A DNA stretch of 64,000 bases, taken from Bacillota bacterium (GTDB lineage Bacteria > Bacillota_I > Bacilli_A > RF39 > UBA660). Each line of letters starts with the position of its first letter. Positions within the stretch are counted from its first letter, which is position 1. Made by a program: the position numbers and the translations under genes. This document shows, piece by piece, positions 33,862 to 62,612 of this stretch. The notes beneath the pieces are model-generated. The model made no database searches. It was given only the letters and a program-made list of their open reading frames with translations, and had not been told where the DNA came from. The stretch lies in contig SVAJ01000001.1 of the NCBI GenBank assembly GCA_015059435.1, positions 156,657-220,656 of the forward strand, written 5' to 3'.

Positions 33862-33883
33862 AAACTCAGATTACGCTGAGTTT
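33862..33883 (-). terminator. Terminator hairpin of the beta-helix gene (near-identical copy at 35657-35678)
   Basis: Stem AAACTCAG, loop of 6 nt, stem CTGAGTTT, followed on the minus strand by TTAATTGTC. It is 21/22 identical to the htrA terminator. Confidence 0.6.
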
Positions 33884-33892
33884 AATTATTTA

Positions 33893-35227
33893 TTATTTTT
33901 TGAATTCAACACCATTAACATATAGTTTATAACCATTTAGGTTAATATTACTATTGGTTGAATCTGCATTTGTAAGTGATTTAACATAAGTATTACCTGT
34001 TAGAGTAATAGAACTTGTTTTATCAAGTGTTAATGATACTTCTCCAGAGTTACTATTATTAATAGTACCTTTATAAGAAGAATTCTTTTTCAAATTCATT
34101 GTTAATTTAGATATTGAGTCTACAACTATATTTCCTGTTGTTTTTTGATTAGTTAAGTTTAATGTAACATCTCCACCATTACTTCCAGAATTACCCCAAG
34201 AATCTTTTTGAACTCTTAAGAAGTTTCCTGTTGAATCATTGTTTACTATTTTATTATTTTCTAGGTTGATAGTAGCAGTTGTATTTGTTACATAGAAACT
34301 ATCACCTTTATTTGTTGTAATTGTTGAATTTTTAGAGGTAAATACTGCTTTACCACTTGCAGCGTCTCCACTCATAGATTGATATAGGAATATATTCTTA
34401 TATGTAGTTGATTGTCCATTTAATGTATTATTAGTATCTGTTAATTCTACATTTTCTAGTGTGACACTATTTTTTCCTTCTATGACTACTCCTTCTGATG
34501 CAGTTGATATTAATGTTGCGTTTTTTACAGTAATATCAGCTGTTGAATAAATAGTTGGAGAACCTTTACCTGTAGTTTTATAAGTACCTTTATTAACTGT
34601 TACTGTTCCACCTCCTCTATCAGATCTAATAGCAGCAGATGAAGTTCCTGCTGTAGTAATAGTTAAGTTAGTGGCATTCATAATCCCACCACCTGTAGTC
34701 ATAATTCCTCCGGAGTTATCTTTAGTAGTAGTGATTTTTGAATCACTAATATTTATTGTAGTATTATCTGATGAAGAGTTATTTGTAGTAGCAGAACCTC
34801 CATAGCTAAATACTCCATTAGCACCTGTTGCGTCTGTTTTTATATTTGCATTTTTTATAGTTAAGTTTGCTCCAGCTTTAGCTATTATTGCGGAATTAGT
34901 TCCATAAAAACTAGTATTATCTCCACCATCAGAGTCTCCTGTTTTATTTACAGTAATATTTGATAAAGTAGATTTAATTTTTCCTGATACTGATATTACA
35001 TTTTCATCAGCTTTAGTAGATTTGTATTCTCCTGATGTAATATCTTCATCTTTAGTTATTTCTTTTACTGCAGAATATGATGCAGTAGAATTATTATTTC
35101 CACCAGGCATATTATTTTCTTTATTATTAGTTTTATTACTATTAATAATTAAAAACCATAGTACTCCAAGAATTATAACTAATACAATAATTGTAATTAT
35201 ATATAATAAATTAGTTTTATTTTTCAT
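33893..35227 (-). CDS. Membrane-anchored right-handed beta-helix protein (Cthe_2159-like carbohydrate-binding domain family)
   Basis: N-terminal TM segment. Long Thr/Asn/Gly/Ser-rich imperfect ~22-25-aa rungs (ANLTIKNANIKT, GTVTVNKGTYKT, ADITVKNATLIS, NSVTLENVELTD). C-terminal ...NINLNGYKLYVNGVEFKK is typical of that family as I recall it. Confidence 0.55.
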   Translation of the reverse strand: MKNKTNLLYIITIIVLVIILGVLWFLIINSNKTNNKENNMPGGNNNSTASYSAVKEITKDEDITSGEYKSTKADENVISVSGKIKSTLSNITVNKTGDSDGGDNTSFYGTNSAIIAKAGANLTIKNANIKTDATGANGVFSYGGSATTNNSSSDNTTINISDSKITTTKDNSGGIMTTGGGIMNATNLTITTAGTSSAAIRSDRGGGTVTVNKGTYKTTGKGSPTIYSTADITVKNATLISTASEGVVIEGKNSVTLENVELTDTNNTLNGQSTTYKNIFLYQSMSGDAASGKAVFTSKNSTITTNKGDSFYVTNTTATINLENNKIVNNDSTGNFLRVQKDSWGNSGSNGGDVTLNLTNQKTTGNIVVDSISKLTMNLKKNSSYKGTINNSNSGEVSLTLDKTSSITLTGNTYVKSLTNADSTNSNINLNGYKLYVNGVEFKK

Positions 35228-35249: not shown

Positions 35250-35465
35250 TTAATTACTTTCTTGTGTAGTACTGTTGTTATTATTATTTGACATATCTGG
35301 TGGTGTTTGTCCATTAGGCATACTTGGTGGTGTACCACCATTCATTTGAGTATTTTGATTAGTATTATTACAAGAACTAGAAATATTATATACATAAAAT
35401 GCTCCTGTAGATATTACTGCTCCAATTAGTACTCCAATAACAAATAGAATTAATTTTTCTTTCAT
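35250..35465 (-). CDS. Small TM protein with a Pro-rich tail (GGTPPSMPNGQTPPDM)
   Basis: 71 aa with an AAGGAGA SD, 22 nt upstream of the beta-helix gene on the same strand. Confidence 0.55.
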   Translation of the reverse strand: MKEKLILFVIGVLIGAVISTGAFYVYNISSSCNNTNQNTQMNGGTPPSMPNGQTPPDMSNNNNNSTTQESN

Positions 35466-35621
35466 ATAAATATCTCCTTTCTATTAGTATGTTATTATAT
35501 TTTTATTATACATTATTTTTCTTATATATTACCTCCTTTATTTATTATAAATGTAAATAATTGCTAGCATATTGTGAAATAGAAATATATTTTTCCTTTC
35601 ACTAAATACATAATAAATGAT

Positions 35622-35642
35622 GAAACTTAAATAAGACTGAAT
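35622..35642 (-). promoter_or_regulatory. Response-regulator box copy a (upstream of the 71-aa/beta-helix operon)
   Basis: Plus strand GAAACTTAAATAAGACTGAAT is two AACTxAAA-type half-sites 11 bp apart. On the minus strand it is followed by ATCATT-TATTAT and lies just downstream of the htrA terminator. Confidence 0.5.
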
Positions 35643-35656
35643 TTTTATAAAAATAA

Positions 35657-35678
35657 AAACTCAGATTACTCTGAGTTT
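35657..35678 (-). terminator. Terminator of the HtrA-like gene
   Basis: Stem AAACTCAG, loop of 6 nt, stem CTGAGTTT, followed on the minus strand by TTTTATTTTTAT. Confidence 0.7.
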
Positions 35679-35745
35679 GATTACTTTTTATGTTTTGTTT
35701 TTATTTATTCATATATCATCTCCTTATGTTATCATTCTAACTTAT

Positions 35746-35766
35746 TAATCTTAAATAAAACTGAAA
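35746..35766 (-). promoter_or_regulatory. Response-regulator box copy b (between the htrA stop and its terminator; function doubtful)
   Basis: Plus strand TAATCTTAAATAAAACTGAAA matches the motif in both half-sites. No gene starts downstream of it before the terminator. Confidence 0.3.
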
Positions 35767-35772
35767 ATAGTT

Positions 35773-36948
35773 TTATTTTAGAGAAATAGTTATTTCTTTT
35801 TCTTTATATGTATTTCTACTTGCATATTTTATTTTTAAAGTTACTTTATCACCTTTGTTCTTTTTATTTAGTACTTTTCTTAAAGTGTCTATGGATGTTA
35901 CTTTATTATTATCTATTTCTGTTATTATATTTCCTATTTCTAATTCTGATTTAGATGCATTACTATTAGAAGAGATTGCTGAAATATAGAATCCTTCTGG
36001 TAAGTTATAATTTGAATCAGTCATATATCCTTCTATTCCTAAACTTACTCCGCTTTCATCATTTTTTCCTTTTATTAAGTTTTTAATTATTTCTTCTACA
36101 TCCGATATTGGTATAGCAAAACCCATACCTTCAATACTAGCAGAAGAGTTTGTTGAGTTAGATGAATACTTTACTGAATTTATTCCTACTACTTCCCCTT
36201 TACTATTTAATAGAGCTCCACCACTATTACCACCATTAATAGCAGCATCTATTTGAATCATATCTTGAACATATTCATCTGTTGAAACTTCTCTATTTAG
36301 AGCACTAACTACTCCTGTTGTTACTGATTGACCATAACCTAGGGCATTACCAATAGCAATAATTCCATTACCAACTTTTAAATCATTACTATTTCCTAAA
36401 GTAGCTATTTTTATTTGTTTTAAAGTATCACTTTCAATACTCTTTTTACTTACTGATACTACAGCTATATCTTTTCTTTCTGAAATGCCTTTTACTTTAG
36501 CATCATAACTTTTATCATCAATAAACTTTACTGATAATTCAGTGGAATCTTCTACCACGTGATAATTAGTTAAGATAAATATTTCATCATCATTTTCAGA
36601 TATTATCACTCCTGATCCTGCTCCTTCAGTAGTATAACTCTCATTATAAAAACTTGGTCCAAATCTTCCTGAAGAAATGACTGTTTTACTTGTTATTGAT
36701 ACGATTGATGGCATTACTTCATCTACAACTTCTGATACATCCGTTATATAAACACCATCTGATTTTACTGTTGTTTCTTTTGTATGTTTTAAAACTACAT
36801 TTTCTTTGTTGTCTGATAATATATTTATTTTACCAGATTGTAATAACCAAATTGTACTACCACTAATGATAGATAGTAACACAGTACAAGTTATTGTGAT
36901 AATTATTATTTTTTTATCACTTATTTTATTTTTGTGTTCTTTTTTCAT
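35773..36948 (-). CDS. HtrA/DegP-family serine protease with an N-terminal TM anchor and a C-terminal PDZ domain
   Basis: Catalytic triad context (TNYHVV, DIAVV, GNSGGAL) and a PDZ-like tail (GDKVTLKIK). Confidence 0.88.
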   Translation of the reverse strand: MKKEHKNKISDKKIIIITITCTVLLSIISGSTIWLLQSGKINILSDNKENVVLKHTKETTVKSDGVYITDVSEVVDEVMPSIVSITSKTVISSGRFGPSFYNESYTTEGAGSGVIISENDDEIFILTNYHVVEDSTELSVKFIDDKSYDAKVKGISERKDIAVVSVSKKSIESDTLKQIKIATLGNSNDLKVGNGIIAIGNALGYGQSVTTGVVSALNREVSTDEYVQDMIQIDAAINGGNSGGALLNSKGEVVGINSVKYSSNSTNSSASIEGMGFAIPISDVEEIIKNLIKGKNDESGVSLGIEGYMTDSNYNLPEGFYISAISSNSNASKSELEIGNIITEIDNNKVTSIDTLRKVLNKKNKGDKVTLKIKYASRNTYKEKEITISLK

Positions 36949-36979
36949 ATTCTCATCTCCTAGTATTAATTTAATATGT

Positions 36980-37000
36980 GAAACTTAAATATAACTGAAA
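36980..37000 (-). promoter_or_regulatory. Response-regulator box copy c (upstream of htrA)
   Basis: Plus strand GAAACTTAAATATAACTGAAA. On the minus strand it is followed by ACA-TATTAA and then the htrA SD. It abuts the ABC ATPase terminator. Confidence 0.5.
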
Positions 37001-37025
37001 AATAGTAGATATTTTATCTACTATT
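36996..37025 (-). terminator. Terminator of the ABC exporter operon
   Basis: Minus strand: stem AATAGTAGAT, loop AAAAT, stem ATCTACTATT, followed by TTTTCAG. Confidence 0.65.
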
Positions 37026-37062
37026 TTGTAAGGAGTATTTTATATATTATATTATATTATGA

Positions 37063-37755
37063 TTATTTTACTTTCTTTAGATCATATACTTGATCTACCA
37101 TATTACATACATTAGGAGAATGAGTAACTATAATTACACATTTTCCATCTTCATGAGCTAGTTTTTTAAATATTTCTAATATTTCTTTTTCTGTTTGTTT
37201 GTCTAAGTTTCCAGTTGGTTCATCAGCAACTATCATTTTAGGATTATATGAAAGACTTCTTGCAATTGCAACACGCTGTTGTTCTCCTCCTGAAATTCTT
37301 AATACTTTACGATTGGCATACTTTTCTTTTAATCCTACACTTTTCATAAGCTTTAATGCTTCTTCTTTTTTATTAGGTATTTTTACTCCACTAGCATCCA
37401 TTGATAAAATTATATTTTCACTGGCAGTCATAAATGGAAGTAAATTGTAGCTTTGAAAAACAATTCCTATTTCATGACTACGATAATAATCTAGATTTAT
37501 ATCTTTTAAGTCTTTTCCATCAAATATAATTTTTCCTTCAGTACATCTTTCTAAACCACTTATTAAAGATAATAATGTAGTTTTTCCTGTACCACTTCTT
37601 CCACGTATTGCATATATTTTTCCTTTTTCAAAATCATAGTTAACATCTTTTAATGCGTACTCATCTTCTTCAGCATCACTATATCTATAACTAGCATTTT
37701 GAATAGAAAGTATTATATTTTTATTTTTTATCTCTTTATTATTTATTTTTTTCAT
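37063..37755 (-). CDS. ABC transporter ATP-binding protein (MacB/FtsE-LolD type)
   Basis: Walker A GRSGTGKTT, signature ISGGEQQRVAIARS, Walker B IVADEPTGNLD. Confidence 0.9.
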   Translation of the reverse strand: MKKINNKEIKNKNIILSIQNASYRYSDAEEDEYALKDVNYDFEKGKIYAIRGRSGTGKTTLLSLISGLERCTEGKIIFDGKDLKDINLDYYRSHEIGIVFQSYNLLPFMTASENIILSMDASGVKIPNKKEEALKLMKSVGLKEKYANRKVLRISGGEQQRVAIARSLSYNPKMIVADEPTGNLDKQTEKEILEIFKKLAHEDGKCVIIVTHSPNVCNMVDQVYDLKKVK

Positions 37756-37756
37756 A

Positions 37757-39226
37757 TTACGACCTCTCTTTCAATATAGTAAGTGGTGTAAATCTTTGAA
37801 TACTAATCATAGATGATAGACTACTAACTACAATTAATGTTAATCCAACACCTAACAATTCTACCAAAACAATTGGGCTTACTACAGCATTTATTGAATC
37901 ATATGCTTGTACGTTTGGAGTACCTTTGTTCTTAAAGTTCATTGAAGGCTCTCCTTGTTTAGAGTCGAAATTACCACTAGGTCCACCAAAATTATTTTTT
38001 AACTCTTCTTGTTCTTTCTCGGAACTTTTTATTTCACTTGATAGTAGCGAATTACTTACACCTTTTGACATCGTAGCTCCTACTCCAGCTCCAAGCATTA
38101 AGGCTACAAAACCTACTATTAATAGTTCAGCAACAAATTGCATAGTTAATTTAATTTTACTTATACCAATAGTTCTTAAAACACCAATTTCATATTTTCT
38201 TTCACGAATATTAATCATATTAATTACAAATAGAACAATACCACCTATTACTAATGTAATAATTAAGAAAGTATTAGCAAATGATTTAACATTTTTAATT
38301 GAGGTTAATCCTGCTGTTGCTTGTTCTTCATTTGTTTCTACTGTATAATTCTCATCTAATCCTTTTTTATGAAATTCTTTTTCTATTTTATCTGCATTTT
38401 TATAATCATCAATTATAAATGTTGGTTTAATAGAACTTTTAATATTTGTATTTTCTTTTGTTATATTAACAAGACTATTAGAGTTTGTAATAAGTGTATT
38501 TGCTGAGTTAGAAAACATACTCATAGGTCCTGATGATTCTTCTTCATTTTCTTTATAAATACCTATTATTTCAAATTCATATGTTCTTTCATTGTCATCT
38601 ACAAGTGTAATCTTGTCATGAAGTTTTAGATTATTGTATGATGCTAGTTCTTCATTAATAAATACATAGTTTCCATCAAAAGCAATATCCCAAGCATTAT
38701 CAGCAATTTCTTTCATTTCATATTTACCTTCTATGAATTCACTCATTGCATCAACTGAACTATATCCATTTAATGTAAAATCATACGATGATTCTTCATT
38801 CTCTTTTCCTGGAAAATTTGGTCTATCTCCTTTCTCATTATTAGAATCACTTTCAGCTTTTTCAATTGATTTTCCATTTAATGAAATATTATACGTATAG
38901 TAATAACTTTTTATATGACTACTTTTAGCAAAATTTTCTACATCACTTATTGTGTATGAACTAATACTACTAATTTTTTCTTTCATAGACTCTCTATTAT
39001 CTTTATTACTAAAGTCCATATCTTTCATCATGTTCTTTCTATCAAATGAAATTGTAAGTTCTTTATCATATGCACTTTGATAGGAATTAATTAGATCACT
39101 GGCTGTATTATTAATTGCTAAAGTTATGGTTGAAGCACAAGCAATAACTAAAATAATAGCACCAATCAAAATATTTCTACCTTTATTTCTTGTTATTGAA
39201 ATAAGAGCATTTTTAAATATAAACAT
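37757..39226 (-). CDS. ABC transporter permease, single FtsX domain with a large extracytoplasmic loop (MacB-type)
   Basis: TM1, then an ~300-aa loop, then three C-terminal TM helices (FtsX-like RERKYEIGVLRTIG). It is adjacent to the ATPase with a 1-nt gap. Confidence 0.85.
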   Translation of the reverse strand: MFIFKNALISITRNKGRNILIGAIILVIACASTITLAINNTASDLINSYQSAYDKELTISFDRKNMMKDMDFSNKDNRESMKEKISSISSYTISDVENFAKSSHIKSYYYTYNISLNGKSIEKAESDSNNEKGDRPNFPGKENEESSYDFTLNGYSSVDAMSEFIEGKYEMKEIADNAWDIAFDGNYVFINEELASYNNLKLHDKITLVDDNERTYEFEIIGIYKENEEESSGPMSMFSNSANTLITNSNSLVNITKENTNIKSSIKPTFIIDDYKNADKIEKEFHKKGLDENYTVETNEEQATAGLTSIKNVKSFANTFLIITLVIGGIVLFVINMINIRERKYEIGVLRTIGISKIKLTMQFVAELLIVGFVALMLGAGVGATMSKGVSNSLLSSEIKSSEKEQEELKNNFGGPSGNFDSKQGEPSMNFKNKGTPNVQAYDSINAVVSPIVLVELLGVGLTLIVVSSLSSMISIQRFTPLTILKERS

Positions 39227-39271
39227 TTATTTTTCTCCTTTCTTTTTGTTTACAATAGGAGTTTAACAACT

Positions 39272-39292
39272 ATAACTGAAATAAAACTGAAA
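39272..39292 (-). promoter_or_regulatory. Response-regulator box copy d (upstream of the ABC exporter operon)
   Basis: Plus strand ATAACTGAAATAAAACTGAAA. On the minus strand this is TTTCAGTTTTA-TTTCAGTTAT, an exact 8-nt half-site repeated at 11 bp. It lies between the HK terminator and the permease SD. Confidence 0.5.
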
Positions 39293-39322
39293 ATAAAAAG
39301 AATCAAAATTTATTTTTGATTC
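39291..39322 (-). terminator. Terminator of the RR-HK operon (stop codon in the loop)
   Basis: Minus strand: stem GAATCAAAA, loop ATAAA, stem TTTTGATTC, followed by TTTTTATTT. Confidence 0.6.
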
Positions 39323-40527
39323 CATGTTACTTTAAATGTAGTATATCCATCATTAGAATATGCTTTTATTTCTCCATTATGTCTTTCTACAATATTCTTA
39401 GCAATAGCAAGTCCTAATCCATAATTATTAGAATTTCTATTTCTTGATGTGTCTACTTTATAAAATCTTTCAAATATTTTTTCTTCATCTTCTTTTTTGA
39501 TAGGTAAACCTTTATTTTTAACTTCTAGAATTATTTGTTTATTCTTTTGATATAGATTAACAAATACTTTTCCTTTTTCTTCACAATGCTTAATAGCATT
39601 ATCAGTTAAAATACTTATTAATTCTATTATTAAATTTTCATTACATATCATTTTAATATCTGGAGTTATATCATATTTTAATTTAATTTTATTATCATAA
39701 AATAGACTTTCAAAAGTTAAAATAGAACTTTCTATAATATCAGATATATTCTTTTCTTCCATAATTATTTCTTGTTCTTGTTCAGTTTTAGCTAGATCTA
39801 ATAATTCTGTTACTAATTTAGTCATTCTTTCTGCTTCATTTTTTATGTTTTTTACCCATTTATCATTTTTATCATTAAAGTAAGCATCGCTACTTGCAAT
39901 CATAACAGATAATGGAGTCTTTAATTCATGAGATGCATCTGCTACAAAAGTTTTTTGTTTTTCGAAAGAATTTTTTACTGGTGTAATTATCCAGTTAGTT
40001 ATTAAATTTGTAATTATAAGTATTATTATTTCACAAATTATAAATAATAATATAGTTGATATTAAATTACTTACTAAAATACTATTTAATTCAGTATTAT
40101 CAATAATAATAAGAGTATTGTATGAAGTAAAACTATATGAATATTTATCGGTGTATAAATTACCAATATAAAATTTTTCTTTATGATTATTAATTATTTT
40201 ATTTGCAATACTTTTTACATATTCTTCATTAAAATTATCATTATTAGTATGATTAATTACTCCCTCATAATTACCATTATCATCTAATAATACCGTATAT
40301 ATTTTTGAATCTAAAAATATTCTTCTTGAATCATCATTTTGTTCAGGCCTTGAAGGAATATGCCTAGATATATCTTCAAATGTTCTAGGTATTTTTGTAA
40401 GTCTTTCTGAAATAGAATTTCTTCTTTCAATATATGTTCTGGTAATTGAAGTGGTAAAGATAATAAAAGTAAATACTGTTAATAGTGAAAATATTACCCA
40501 AAAAACTTTATTCTTTAGTTTTTTCAT
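39310..40527 (-). CDS. Sensor histidine kinase (two TM helices, ~130-aa extracytoplasmic loop, HisKA + HATPase_c)
   Basis: H-box FVADASHELKTPL, N-box LTDNAIKH, G-boxes NNYGLGLAIAK. It overlaps the RR gene by 20 nt. Confidence 0.9.
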   Translation of the reverse strand: MKKLKNKVFWVIFSLLTVFTFIIFTTSITRTYIERRNSISERLTKIPRTFEDISRHIPSRPEQNDDSRRIFLDSKIYTVLLDDNGNYEGVINHTNNDNFNEEYVKSIANKIINNHKEKFYIGNLYTDKYSYSFTSYNTLIIIDNTELNSILVSNLISTILLFIICEIIILIITNLITNWIITPVKNSFEKQKTFVADASHELKTPLSVMIASSDAYFNDKNDKWVKNIKNEAERMTKLVTELLDLAKTEQEQEIIMEEKNISDIIESSILTFESLFYDNKIKLKYDITPDIKMICNENLIIELISILTDNAIKHCEEKGKVFVNLYQKNKQIILEVKNKGLPIKKEDEEKIFERFYKVDTSRNRNSNNYGLGLAIAKNIVERHNGEIKAYSNDGYTTFKVTWNQK

Positions 40528-41203
40528 CTTCTACCTCCAATATATATCCCATATTACGAATTGCTTTTAATTTGATGTTTGATTTAACTAGTTTTAATTT
40601 TTTTCTAATAAATGAAATATATGCTTCTAATGTATTTATATCACATTCACTGTCATATCCCCAAATTTTAATAAATAGTTGCTCTTTTTCCATAATTTGA
40701 TTTGCATTATTCATTAATAATTCTAAAAGATGAAATTCTTTTCCTATTATTTTTACTTTATGATTTTCATTTTTATTTGATAGTTCCATGCTTTTTATAT
40801 TAAGAGTAATATCACCTAACTCCATAATATCATTAGAGATATTTTTGTTTTTTCTTAGTTGAACATTTACTCTGGCAATTAATTCTTCCATATGAAACGG
40901 TTTAGTTAAATAGTCATCAGCTCCACTATTGAATCCTATCATTTTATCATCTATAGTATTTTTAGCTGTTAACATTAAAATTTTTGACTTAATGTTTTCC
41001 TCTTTTAGTTCTTTTAAAATTTCAAAACCATTTTTATGAGGTAACATTACATCTAATATTATTAGATCATAAATATCTGTTAATGCCTCATTTAATCCAG
41101 TTAGTCCATCTGTTTTAATTTCAACACTATACTTTTTTGATTTTAACATACTAGCAATAGCATCAGCTAAATTATATTCATCTTCTATTATTAATATTTT
41201 CAT
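40508..41203 (-). CDS. OmpR/PhoB-family response regulator
   Basis: Receiver domain (ILIIEDE...DLIILDVMLP...LTAK) and a winged-helix output domain (LEAYISFIRKKL). Start at MKILII with an AGGTGGTGA SD. Confidence 0.9.
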   Translation of the reverse strand: MKILIIEDEYNLADAIASMLKSKKYSVEIKTDGLTGLNEALTDIYDLIILDVMLPHKNGFEILKELKEENIKSKILMLTAKNTIDDKMIGFNSGADDYLTKPFHMEELIARVNVQLRKNKNISNDIMELGDITLNIKSMELSNKNENHKVKIIGKEFHLLELLMNNANQIMEKEQLFIKIWGYDSECDINTLEAYISFIRKKLKLVKSNIKLKAIRNMGYILEVEDEKTKE

Positions 41204-41234
41204 ACATTTCACCACCTAATTAATTATAGAGTTT

Positions 41235-41255
41235 GAAACTTAAGTAAAACTGAAA
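41235..41255 (-). promoter_or_regulatory. Response-regulator box copy e (autoregulatory, upstream of RR-HK)
   Basis: Plus strand GAAACTTAAGTAAAACTGAAA. On the minus strand it is followed by AAACTC and a perfect -10 TATAAT (41228-41223). No good -35 is present, as expected for an activator-dependent promoter. Confidence 0.55.
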
Positions 41256-41262
41256 TAATATA

Positions 41263-42657
41263 TTAATTAAAATTCTTCCAAGTTTTTAACATATCTTCAT
41301 CTTTTTCATATATTCCTAGAATAGTATTATTATATTTAAAGATTACTTTATCTTCTATGTTGTATGTGTTTTTTATTTTTACTCCATTAGATATTTTTTT
41401 ATATAAGTTATCTTCTATTTCTACTATAGGATAGTCTAGAGCATTGTCTATAGAGTATAGTTTATAATTATTATTTTTTATATCATCTAAAGTATTAGAG
41501 TTTTCTAATGTAAATTTACCTAGTTTAGTTCTAGTTAATTTAGTCATAGTTGCGTATGTATTTAGACTTTCTCCTATATCATTAATTAAACTTCTTATAT
41601 AACAACCTTTAGATACAAGGGACTTAAACATAAATTCATTTTTATCTTTACTTAATAGTTCTATTTCTTTAATAGTTACTTCTTTTTTAGGTAGTTCTAC
41701 GGATTCATTATTTCTAGCATATTCATATAGTTTTTTACCATTTACTTTTACTGCAGAATAGATTGGGACTTCTTGAAGATATGTTTTTTTATAACTAGAG
41801 ATTGTTTTTTCTAAGTCTAAGTTATCTGGTACTTCTTTAGAATCTATTACTTTACCTTCTATATCATAAGTATCTGTTTTTATACCTAGTTGTACTCCTG
41901 CAATATATTCTTTATATTTAGCTGTTAAAAGTTCTGCTATTTTTGTAGCTTTACCTATAGTTACAACTAATACTCCTTCTGCTAGAGGATCTAATGTTCC
42001 TGTGTGTCCTACTCTTTTAATTCCAAAGATATGACTAATATCATTTACTACATCAAAGGATGTTACTCCTTTTTTCTTATTTATTACTAATACTCCACTA
42101 AATTTAGTTAAGTATTCCTCTAATGTCCAATTATTTTCATATATAATTTTGGCAACTACTTTCCCAACATATCTAATATGCCATGGTTCATAACTATATC
42201 CAGTAATATCTTCTTTGCCTTCTTGATATCTTAAGATAAAACCAAATTTATGGAAATACTTTTCTATTTGTTGATATGGTTTAATATTTTTTAATACTTT
42301 TTTATCTTCTACTATGAATTTACCATTTTCTTTAATTCTAATATCTAGAGCAAGGCCTGTATGATGTTCACTTGCGCGTATAGGCGCAACATATTTCTTT
42401 TCAAAGTCTTCTCCATACTTTTTAGTATACTCATTAATTATTTCTTGTTGATCTTGTAGTGTTCTATATGCACTTGATATACCTATTTCAATATTTTCTT
42501 CTTCTAAGAACTTTTTTAATTCTAAGTATGATTCTAGTGTTTGTTTTTCAACTAGTATTTTATTATCTAATATATCAAAGTATTCTACTAGATCTATTTT
42601 ATCTAAATATTTATCTTTAACTAAGTTATCTTTGTTTACTAATACTTTATAGTTCAT
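41263..42657 (-). CDS. truB: Fusion protein: N-terminal VanY-type (M15B) D-Ala-D-Ala carboxypeptidase domain + tRNA pseudouridine-55 synthase TruB
   Basis: Residues ~55-180 carry SSAYRTLQDQQ, SEHHTGLALDI and EPWHIRYVG (the VanY zinc-peptidase signature). From ~190 come GVLVINKKKGVTSFDVV and GHTGTLDPLAEGVLVV (TruB catalytic Asp motif). It is a single uninterrupted 464-aa ORF with no signal peptide. Confidence 0.8.
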   Translation of the reverse strand: MNYKVLVNKDNLVKDKYLDKIDLVEYFDILDNKILVEKQTLESYLELKKFLEEENIEIGISSAYRTLQDQQEIINEYTKKYGEDFEKKYVAPIRASEHHTGLALDIRIKENGKFIVEDKKVLKNIKPYQQIEKYFHKFGFILRYQEGKEDITGYSYEPWHIRYVGKVVAKIIYENNWTLEEYLTKFSGVLVINKKKGVTSFDVVNDISHIFGIKRVGHTGTLDPLAEGVLVVTIGKATKIAELLTAKYKEYIAGVQLGIKTDTYDIEGKVIDSKEVPDNLDLEKTISSYKKTYLQEVPIYSAVKVNGKKLYEYARNNESVELPKKEVTIKEIELLSKDKNEFMFKSLVSKGCYIRSLINDIGESLNTYATMTKLTRTKLGKFTLENSNTLDDIKNNNYKLYSIDNALDYPIVEIEDNLYKKISNGVKIKNTYNIEDKVIFKYNNTILGIYEKDEDMLKTWKNFN

Positions 42658-51108: not shown

Positions 51109-51184
51109 TGGTGGAGCATAGCGGGATCGAACCGCTGACCTCCACGGTGCAAACGTGGCGCTCTCCCAGCTGAGCTAATGCCCC
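51109..51184 (-). tRNA. tRNA-Ala (anticodon UGC), CCA encoded
   Basis: Minus strand: GGGGCATTAGCTCAGCTGGGAGAGCGCCACGTTTGCACCGTGGAGGTCAGCGGTTCGATCCCGCTATGCTCCACCA. It folds as a cloverleaf with the G3:U70 Ala identity pair, anticodon loop TTTGCAC, and T-loop GGTTCGATCC. Confidence 0.95.
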
Positions 51185-62382: not shown

Positions 62383-62606
62383 AAAAAAAAGATTCATCCC
62401 TATAAGGACGAATCTTTCGTGGTACCACCTTAATTTATTACTCATAGTAATATCTTAATATTTATAACGGGATTAACCGGAATTATTTACTTAGTTTCAA
62501 TAATTATGCTCCTCTGCTACCTTCAATATCATTACTAGTTAATTTTCACCAACCATTAACTCTCTACGTAGTAATTAATATTTACTCCTCAGATTCAATG
62601 CATCTG
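62383..62606 (-). promoter_or_regulatory. T-box riboswitch leader, valine specifier (GUA)
   Basis: Minus strand features: GA/K-turn region TCTGAGGAGTAA; Stem I ATTACTA-CGTAGAGAG-TTAAT-GGTTGGTGAAA-ATTAA-C-TAGTAAT; specifier loop GAAG-GTA-G closed by CAGA/TCTG (GUA at 62518-62520); T-box AAATTAAGGTGGTACCACG; terminator AAGATTCGTCC/GGATGAATCTT followed by TTTTTTTT. Confidence 0.85.
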
Positions 62607-62612
62607 TTTTAA

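Follow-up and report, generated by a model that had tools for sequence, protein, structure and literature searches.

A probable CiaRH-like two-component regulon marked by five phased promoter repeats in uncultured low-GC gut Bacilli

A short direct repeat occurs five times within 5.6 kb of the minus strand of a 64,000-nucleotide stretch of an uncultured Bacilli genome (contig SVAJ01000001.1, positions 156,657 to 220,656; hereafter the window), ahead of a two-component system (TCS), a MacB-type ABC exporter, an htrA-like gene and a gene pair for a 71-aa and a 444-aa protein. Does this repeat mark a single regulon and, if so, which regulator would read it and to which known system would it belong? 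An initial annotation had recorded the copies at window positions 35622, 35746, 36980, 39272 and 41235, and had proposed that the adjacent OmpR-family response regulator (RR) controls its own operon together with the exporter, htrA and the 71-aa/444-aa pair. The conservation of box and gene described below supports this proposal in silico. We hold, with good confidence, that the locus is a CiaRH-like two-component regulon of an uncultured gut Bacilli bacterium of ~25% GC, and that the five repeats are very probably the binding sites of the neighbouring regulator.

All five copies, with their exact 11-bp phasing, were located by a mismatch scan of the window with the 21-mer GAAACTTAAATAnAACTGAAA, which they match with two mismatches at 35622 and 35746, none at 36980, three at 39272 and one at 41235. 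These five matches compare with 0.18 expected, and no count of five or more was reached in 100 dinucleotide shuffles. Every copy is intergenic and lies on the coding (minus) strand, where the repeat reads TTTCAG-N5-TTTAAG with small variants and the hexamers are exactly 11 bp apart. The first hexamer is TTTCAG or, at 35622, ATTCAG; the second is TTTAAG at three of the five sites, TTTCAG at 39272 and CTTAAG at 41235. A TAnnnT hexamer follows after exactly 10 nt at each of them. In a rule-based scan that required a G as the sixth letter of each hexamer together with a -10-like hexamer at a distance of 10 nt downstream, these five were the sole sites in the 64 kb. A scan of the window for stray hits with a position weight matrix, a check that the initial annotation had proposed for the whole genome, scored the five sites at 26-31 bits and the next best site of the window at 9.2 bits, the matrix being circular (made from the same five sites) and the gap large. 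The degenerate pattern TTYMAG-N5-TTYMAG with one mismatch allowed was not enriched in the window (10 matches, 10.9 expected); the signal therefore comes from the architecture as a whole rather than from AT-richness. A TTGACA-like -35 element was looked for beside the five -10 hexamers and none was recognisable; the box fills the -35 place, and this lack of a usable -35 suggests that the promoters depend on an activator.

Homologues of the histidine kinase (HK) encoded at this locus number in the thousands, the nearest ones (70-88% identity) all coming from gut or rumen metagenomes or from metagenome-assembled genomes labelled 'Bacilli bacterium'. By kinase identity, the loci compared fall into sets of 72-88% (L081-L086, L167-L173), 41-54% (L001-L015, L064, L087-L100) and 26-40%, mainly Clostridia. 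Relatives above 70% were gathered individually, and those below 70% are among the matches listed in kinase-alignment scans of genomes and metagenomes. Boxes were counted in 35 loci whose kinase is at least 40% identical, taking as perfect class TT[TC][AC]A[GT]-N5 followed by the same hexamer pattern, at most 260 nt upstream of the gene. Such a box was found ahead of 22 of 31 RR genes, all eight permease genes, eight of nine htrA genes and all four genes for the 71-aa protein, and ahead of none of the 33 kinase genes, which are internal to their operons. Boxes have a background density of 0.14 per kb per strand, a figure that counts the true sites too, so that about 0.04 would be expected per upstream region. 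The conservation of the box with the gene cluster at orthologous loci, which the initial annotation had put forward as a check, was thus found for each of the boxed gene families.

The position of the box is conserved as well. In relatives, the box of the RR gene lies nearly always 32-35 nt before the ATG, and the distance to the TAnnnT hexamer is 10 nt for most of the 46 boxes ahead of these gene families. Conservation across genomes covers both hexamers and the -10, the 5-nt spacer being variable. Gene order changes from genome to genome: the TCS is followed by permease, ATPase and htrA, by htrA alone, or by neither, and the 71-aa/beta-helix pair is found upstream of the RR gene in L081, L083, L168 and L173; in L171 it lies downstream of the HK gene, at a distance of 3.8 kb. 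In every arrangement the box remains upstream of each gene family, and it precedes the 71-aa homologue in all six close genomes (the window, L171 and L173 included). The type of box follows the RR clade: the close clade has TTT(C/A)AG, the clade with RRs 50-65% identical has TTTAAT, and a third one has TTCAAT. Linkage, position and clade-specific variation are as expected if the adjacent RR reads the box. No recognition-helix residue tied one-to-one to G or T at hexamer position 6 was evident across the RR clades.

More distant loci carry similar boxes. TTTCAG-N5-TTTCAG occurs upstream of many clostridial homologues, even at 45-55% GC. In loci L016-L166 (Clostridia and other Firmicutes), with RRs 38-57% identical to the one in the window, TTTCAG-N5-TTTCAG, TTCAAT-N5-TTCAAT or TTTAAG-N5-TTTAAG lies 30-70 nt before the RR's own start, which points to a very broad, putatively autoregulated family with clade-specific box variants.

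The best match to this architecture is the CiaR box of streptococci, defined as a direct repeat (N)TTAAG-N5-TTTAAG whose hexamers have G in the sixth position; in its TTTAAG-N5-TTTAAG form it lies 10 nt from the -10 and its final G is essential (PMC3091779). A box 10 nt 5' of the -10 on the gene strand served as the criterion for locating the promoters of the CiaR-dependent small RNAs (csRNAs), each csRNA gene consisting of a box promoter and a terminator, and htrA is among the genes whose regulation by CiaR is strongest (PMC3091779). The boxes of the window share with it the direct hexamer repeat, the N5 spacer, the G at position 6, the gene strand and, at all five sites, the 10 nt to the -10. 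The perfect CiaR-type TTTAAG-N5-TTTAAG is used by close relatives. The likeness extends to the predicted members of the regulon, since htrA and the TCS operon are both boxed here (36984-37000 and 41239-41255), to the kinase, which has two transmembrane (TM) segments and an outside loop, and to the occurrence of short box-driven units that end at a terminator. On the other hand, the first hexamer here is usually TTTCAG, the host belongs to uncultured low-GC Bacilli and is not a streptococcus, and the literature compared names neither the MacB-type exporter nor the TM beta-helix pair in connection with the CiaR regulon. The small unit also differs, bearing a Shine-Dalgarno (SD) sequence and an AUG where csRNAs have anti-SD and anti-AUG stretches.

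The RR gene (40508-41203, minus strand as all features of the cluster, ATG at 41203) codes for 231 aa with the Pfam domains Response_reg (E = 2.5e-26) and Trans_reg_C (5.1e-18). It overlaps by 20 nt the gene of the sensor HK (39310-40527, 405 aa), which has HisKA (1.1e-14) and HATPase_c (2.5e-20) domains. The phosphorylation motifs were recognised by inspection, namely the conserved Asp in LIILDVMLP of the RR and His200 in SHELKTP of the kinase. By domain criteria the pair is an OmpR/PhoB-family TCS. Hydropathy places two TM segments in the kinase around an extracytoplasmic loop of ~115 aa, with His200 directly after the second. The relatives of the RR all begin with MKIL. Compared with CiaR of S. 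pneumoniae (a query confirmed by exact look-up as CIAR_STRR6), the RR is 41% identical with a score of 185 bits; with CiaR, nearly all members of this RR family score ~140-199 bits, and most of the bystander OmpR-type RRs at the same loci reach 87-119 bits. The recognition helix TLEAYISFIRKKL matches the near-invariant streptococcal VVEVYVSKVRKKL at seven of 13 residues and differs at the other six. The RR thus probably belongs to the same OmpR subfamily as CiaR. A PDB sequence search with it gave generic OmpR-family matches, with DrrD the best (150 bits) together with PhoP and RegX3, and no CiaR structure. In NCBIfam no equivalog reached the cut-off for the RR, the HK, the permease or the 444-aa protein, and there was no curated CiaR or CiaH match; the best models, RppA for the RR and PnpS for the HK, are both far below cut-off.

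Box 1 (TTTCAG-TTTTA-CTTAAG, 41239-41255) takes the position that a -35 would have in the promoter of the RR-HK operon, and this implies autoregulation. As first described for the copy at 41235, it is followed by AAACTC and by the -10 TATAAT (41223-41228, 10 nt 3' of the box), with no usable -35. A terminator hairpin lies 3' of the HK gene (39299-39323, dG -8.3 kcal/mol, z -3.8, then a U-run), ahead of box 2 (TTTCAG-TTTTA-TTTCAG, 39276-39292) and its -10 TAAACT (39260-39265). This second promoter would serve the genes of a 489-aa FtsX/MacB-type ABC permease (37757-39226) and of a 230-aa ABC ATPase (37063-37755; Pfam ABC_tran). A second hairpin, 3' of the ATPase gene (37001-37025, dG -9.7 kcal/mol, z -6.3, then a U-run), precedes box 3 (TTTCAG-TTATA-TTTAAG, 36984-37000; -10 TAAATT, 36968-36973), which would be the htrA promoter. 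The htrA gene (35773-36948) codes for a 391-aa HtrA/DegP-family serine protease with an N-terminal TM anchor, a trypsin-like domain and one PDZ domain. Box 4 (TTTCAG-TTTTA-TTTAAG, 35750-35766; -10 TAGAAT, 35734-35739) begins 6 nt past the htrA stop, and a third hairpin (35657-35678, dG -14.3 kcal/mol, z -3.6, then a U-run) ends both htrA and the unit of box 4. Directly behind this terminator lies box 5 (ATTCAG-TCTTA-TTTAAG, 35626-35642; -10 TATTAT, 35610-35615), ahead of the genes for the 71-aa protein (35250-35465) and the 444-aa protein (33893-35227).

The gene calls of the initial annotation (RR, HK, permease, ATPase, htrA and the 71-aa/444-aa pair) agree with Pfam and hydropathy. Its placing of four copies behind terminator hairpins has to be corrected to three (39272, 36980 and 35622): no convincing fold precedes the site at 41235 (z -1.6), and the copy at 35746 is upstream of the htrA terminator. 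Similarly, the four operons of the module it described are indeed boxed, while the predicted transcription units are five, the copy at 35746 heading a conserved mini-ORF unit of its own.

Taken together, these features would fit the following mechanism. Through its outside loop, the kinase may sense a perturbation of the envelope or of secreted proteins and would then phosphorylate the OmpR-family regulator. The phosphorylated RR would bind as a head-to-tail dimer to TTT(C/A)AG-N5-TTT(A/C)AG, on one face of the helix and 10 nt 5' of the -10, where it would take the place of the -35 and recruit RNA polymerase, in a class II-type activation. Five promoters would be controlled in this way in 5.6 kb, with a terminator or the end of a gene insulating each one from the unit before it. 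The outputs would be the RR-HK operon itself (positive autoregulation), the MacB/FtsX-type exporter, HtrA, the mini-unit of ~75-80 nt and the 71-aa/beta-helix pair. In this mechanism binding by the RR, activation rather than repression, and a signal of envelope or secretion stress are what we infer, and 'envelope stress' is suggested by the nature of the output genes.

Several points weigh against this reading. Binding, transcription starts and co-induction are predictions in silico. A perfect-class box is missing at nine of the 31 related RR genes, some of which match at 11 of 12 positions. Promoter-like hits in the window are as many as expected (72 against 69) and TAnnnT hexamers are frequent in AT-rich DNA, so that the -10 assignments lean mainly on the fixed 10-nt spacing. 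The specificity of the box was measured within the 64-kb window, one part of the genome. With regard to CiaR, the kinship amounts to 41% identity, the seven shared helix residues and no match to a curated CiaR or CiaH model; moreover, the first hexamer here is TTTCAG instead of TTTAAG and the 'essential' G is a T in the clade with RRs 41-65% identical, which makes for a specificity unlike that of streptococcal CiaR.

An alternative that we regard as unlikely is that the boxes are operators at which the adjacent regulator represses by blocking the -35 region, or that some other, unlinked regulator binds them. CiaR itself represses a minority of its own targets in S. pneumoniae. Repression would also be compatible with the place of the box, which overlaps the core promoter, and the direction of regulation here is deduced. 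In Streptomyces, CutR activates or represses htrA paralogues depending on the position of its site (PMC12802291). Nevertheless, five promoters without a usable -35 would be expected to be weak if they lacked an activator, and 10 nt to the -10 on the same strand is the geometry of the csRNA promoters strongly activated by CiaR (PMC3091779). As for an unlinked regulator, three features point to the adjacent RR: its gene is itself boxed, the TCS and the boxed genes are strictly linked, and the variants of the box are specific to RR clades.

Less probable still, and in our view very unlikely, is that the repeat is a locally duplicated promoter module or the element of an alternative sigma factor. 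The five copies do lie within 5.6 kb, and the htrA promoter and the unit behind htrA have box and -10 in common and are alike in their ribosome-binding site, GGAGATGA...ATGA, so that an old duplication is possible for these two. However, the five copies have flanks that bear no relation to one another, and only the hexamers and the -10 are conserved across genomes. A mobile repeat or a miniature inverted-repeat transposable element was discarded on the ground of the same unrelated flanks. Hexamers in tandem at 11-bp phasing are a typical mark of OmpR/PhoB dimers and not of sigma -35 elements; a promoter of the extracytoplasmic function (ECF) sigma type was dropped, its GAAC/CGT motifs being absent from the coding strand at these promoters. 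A chance origin, for which a ~25% GC genome and the loose hexamer pattern at its expected frequency might speak, is effectively refuted by the excess of the 21-mer over expectation and over all shuffles, by the strand, intergenic location and 10-nt spacing common to all five sites, and by an arrangement kept in dozens of genomes.

Binding by the neighbouring RR of a CiaRH-like system remains the preferred reading, and it has a precedent outside streptococci. In Bacillus anthracis the phosphorylated BAS0540, the closest CiaRH homologue there, bound TTTAAG-N5-TTTAAG in electrophoretic mobility shift assays, at its own gene, so that autoregulation is shown there, and at the gene of an efflux-transporter membrane-fusion protein (MFP), and its predicted regulon does not include htrA (PMC4938410). 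BAS0540/BAS0541 and the system described here thus have in common the use of a CiaR-type box outside streptococci, and in the relative L172 the ABC slot also holds a YknX-type MFP with a MacB-type ABC set; they differ in that htrA is boxed here. LisRK and CssRS, the latter an OmpR-family TCS, are functional analogues in that they control htrA, and they are likened to this system by function. LisRK of Listeria monocytogenes is an envelope-stress TCS that governs htrA and the small RNAs LhrC1-5 and Rli22, the LhrC RNAs pairing with the SD regions of target mRNAs (PMC11236296). CssRS of Bacillus subtilis raises the membrane-anchored HtrA and HtrB under secretion stress (PMC4812647), and the motif of the Streptomyces CssRS/CutRS systems, TAWATAAA, is unrelated to the box found here (PMC12802291).

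A Bce-type module was also considered, as in such modules a TCS is genetically linked to an FtsX-family ABC transporter and induces it. BceS-type kinases are known to have no extracytoplasmic domain, and a BceB permease spans the membrane with 10 TM segments in ~650 aa. In contrast, the kinase of the window has its ~115-aa loop, and the permease has four TM segments in 489 aa and one FtsX domain, features by which a Bce-type module is ruled out. The permease segments lie at residues ~16-42, 313-342, 358-387 and 444-476, with an extracytoplasmic domain of ~270 aa between the first two and a C-terminal match to Pfam FtsX (E = 1e-13); a faint MacB_PCD match was obtained with the orthologue of L167. 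With this topology and an adjacent ATPase gene, the pair is by sequence criteria a MacB/FtsX (type VII) ABC transporter. The nearest NCBIfam models of the ATPase, all below cut-off, are LolD, FtsE and bacteriocin-exporter types. In L172 (1401-6085) the boxed ABC slot contains, in place of the permease-ATPase pair, genes for an 83-aa protein, a YknX-type MFP, an ABC ATPase, a MacB_PCD/FtsX permease and two more proteins.

The initial annotation had found the gene set unlike any described system. It is right that the module is not of the Bce, Lia or Cpx type, but the statement was too strong in view of the CiaRH-like features: htrA and autoregulation are the classic core of such stress regulons, which makes the set less unfamiliar than was held. 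The output set is somewhat unusual, and the system itself is of the known CiaRH-like type.

The unit headed by box 4 is the only element outside existing descriptions, and the part that could prove new. In the window its predicted transcript of ~75-80 nt (35650-35727, from a deduced start site) comprises an SD GGAG (~35720-35724), the mini-ORF ATG-AAT-AAA-TAA (35701-35712) and the terminator at 35657-35678 with its U-run. A box 4 unit follows htrA in all eight close htrA-bearing genomes (the window, L081, L167, L168, L169, L171, L172 and L173), its equivalents lying, for example, at 10915-11045 in L081 and at 12793-12930 in L167. Alignment of the eight gives a constant order: the htrA stop, a few nt, the box, 10 nt, the -10, ~8 nt, a near-invariant aGGAGATGaTAtATGA with a strong SD and ATG, and three to eight codons. 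The peptides (MNK, MIIYCKT, MNRLNKNN, MNIIKQAK, MIIK, MIKKN, MIIG and MNIDK) are not conserved in sequence. The mini-ORF is followed by unconserved A-rich sequence and by a terminator hairpin in the window, L081, L168, L169, L171 and L173; the hairpin is weaker in L167 and none was noted in L172. The genes further downstream differ in every genome.

Two known kinds of element were considered for this unit. According to the criteria for csRNAs (a box promoter, an RNA of 60-250 nt, a terminator, and unpaired anti-SD and anti-AUG (CAU) stretches), promoter, length and terminator fit, but the RNA bears the sense SD (GGAG) and AUG and not their complements, and the csRNA assignment was rejected. 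A remnant of a duplicated htrA 5' end is a possible origin, but the invariance of box, -10, SD and ATG in eight genomes, amid unconserved surroundings, argues for selection. Rfam gave no match for the unit, either in the gathering-threshold scan of the window or in a permissive scan of 35450-35800. We tentatively suggest, as a possibility rather less probable than its contrary, that box 4 heads an undescribed kind of regulon member, whose conserved content is a promoter, a strong SD, an AUG and two or three codons, then a terminator. Under this suggestion the unit would be the 'sense' counterpart of the anti-SD csRNAs and of the LhrC RNAs, and possible roles are those of a stress-induced mini-ORF or of a ribosome-binding RNA acting as 5' stabiliser, decoy or translation-sensing leader.

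At the distal end of the cluster, the 71-aa protein consists of an N-terminal TM helix and a Pro/Asn-rich tail, and the 444-aa protein is predicted to have a TM anchor, a disordered linker and an extracytoplasmic right-handed beta-helix. The 444-aa protein has no Pfam match. Its AlphaFold2 model (pLDDT 85.6, pTM 0.82) places a TM helix at the N-terminus, joined by a disordered linker to a body that is all beta, and the top Foldseek matches of the model are all right-handed beta-helices (pertactin, Ag43, tailspikes, polysaccharide lyases), at weak scores (best E = 3e-3, TM-scores at most 0.42). Longer homologues match PF14262 (Cthe_2159, a carbohydrate-binding beta-helix) or PF13229. The membrane-anchored beta-helix recognised in the initial annotation is therefore supported, as a predicted fold. 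Identity of this protein across the clade is 82-90%, exceeding that of the kinase, and a TM partner of 70-78 aa with a Pro/Asn-rich tail always precedes its gene (L081, L083, L168, L171 and L173).

The pair may also have a second promoter. An extended -10 candidate, TGTATAAT (35505-35512, a match to consensus only), lies 39 nt 5' of the 71-aa start and, together with box 5, suggests dual promoters, one basal and box-independent and one induced. The leader of ~140 nt between box 5 and the 71-aa gene (35466-35625) also contains, upstream of TGTATAAT, an orphan AAAGGAGGT that is SD-like but has no ATG close by and resembles a stabilising SD (STAB-SD). Such orphan elements are comparable to the SD of the box 4 unit. 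Equivalent leaders were located in L081, L083, L168, L171 and L173, and TGTATAAT or GTGTATAAT plus an orphan GGAGG is present in those of L083, L173 and others.

If the CiaRH-like reading is correct, a promoter code of the CiaR type, which is known from streptococci and from one Bacillus, would reach an uncultured group of gut Bacilli that is large and abundant, and its variants TTTAAT, TTCAAT and TTTCAG-TTTCAG would reach many Clostridia. A simple sequence rule would then be at hand for predicting stress regulons in organisms that cannot be cultured. The 71-aa TM family and the TM-anchored beta-helix family would gain a regulatory context, being co-induced with HtrA and a MacB-type exporter.

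Some further features of the window were recorded. Near-identical bidirectional terminator hairpins, AAACTCAGAnTAnnCTGAGTTT, occur at 35657-35678 (end of htrA and the mini-unit) and at 33862-33883 (end of the 444-aa gene). GC content ranges from 21 to 33%, each 2-kb bin has a negative GC skew, and the ORFs called at 30-48 kb are all on the minus strand, consistent with a single replichore. Only two Rfam hits at gathering level were obtained, a T-box leader at 62401-62607 (143 bits) and a tRNA at 51112-51184 on the minus strand. Finally, the neighbouring 464-aa ORF (41263-42657, minus strand) shows an odd pairing, in which a VanY-type D-Ala-D-Ala carboxypeptidase domain (residues 34-166) is fused with a TruB tRNA pseudouridine synthase that is complete (residues 209-409).

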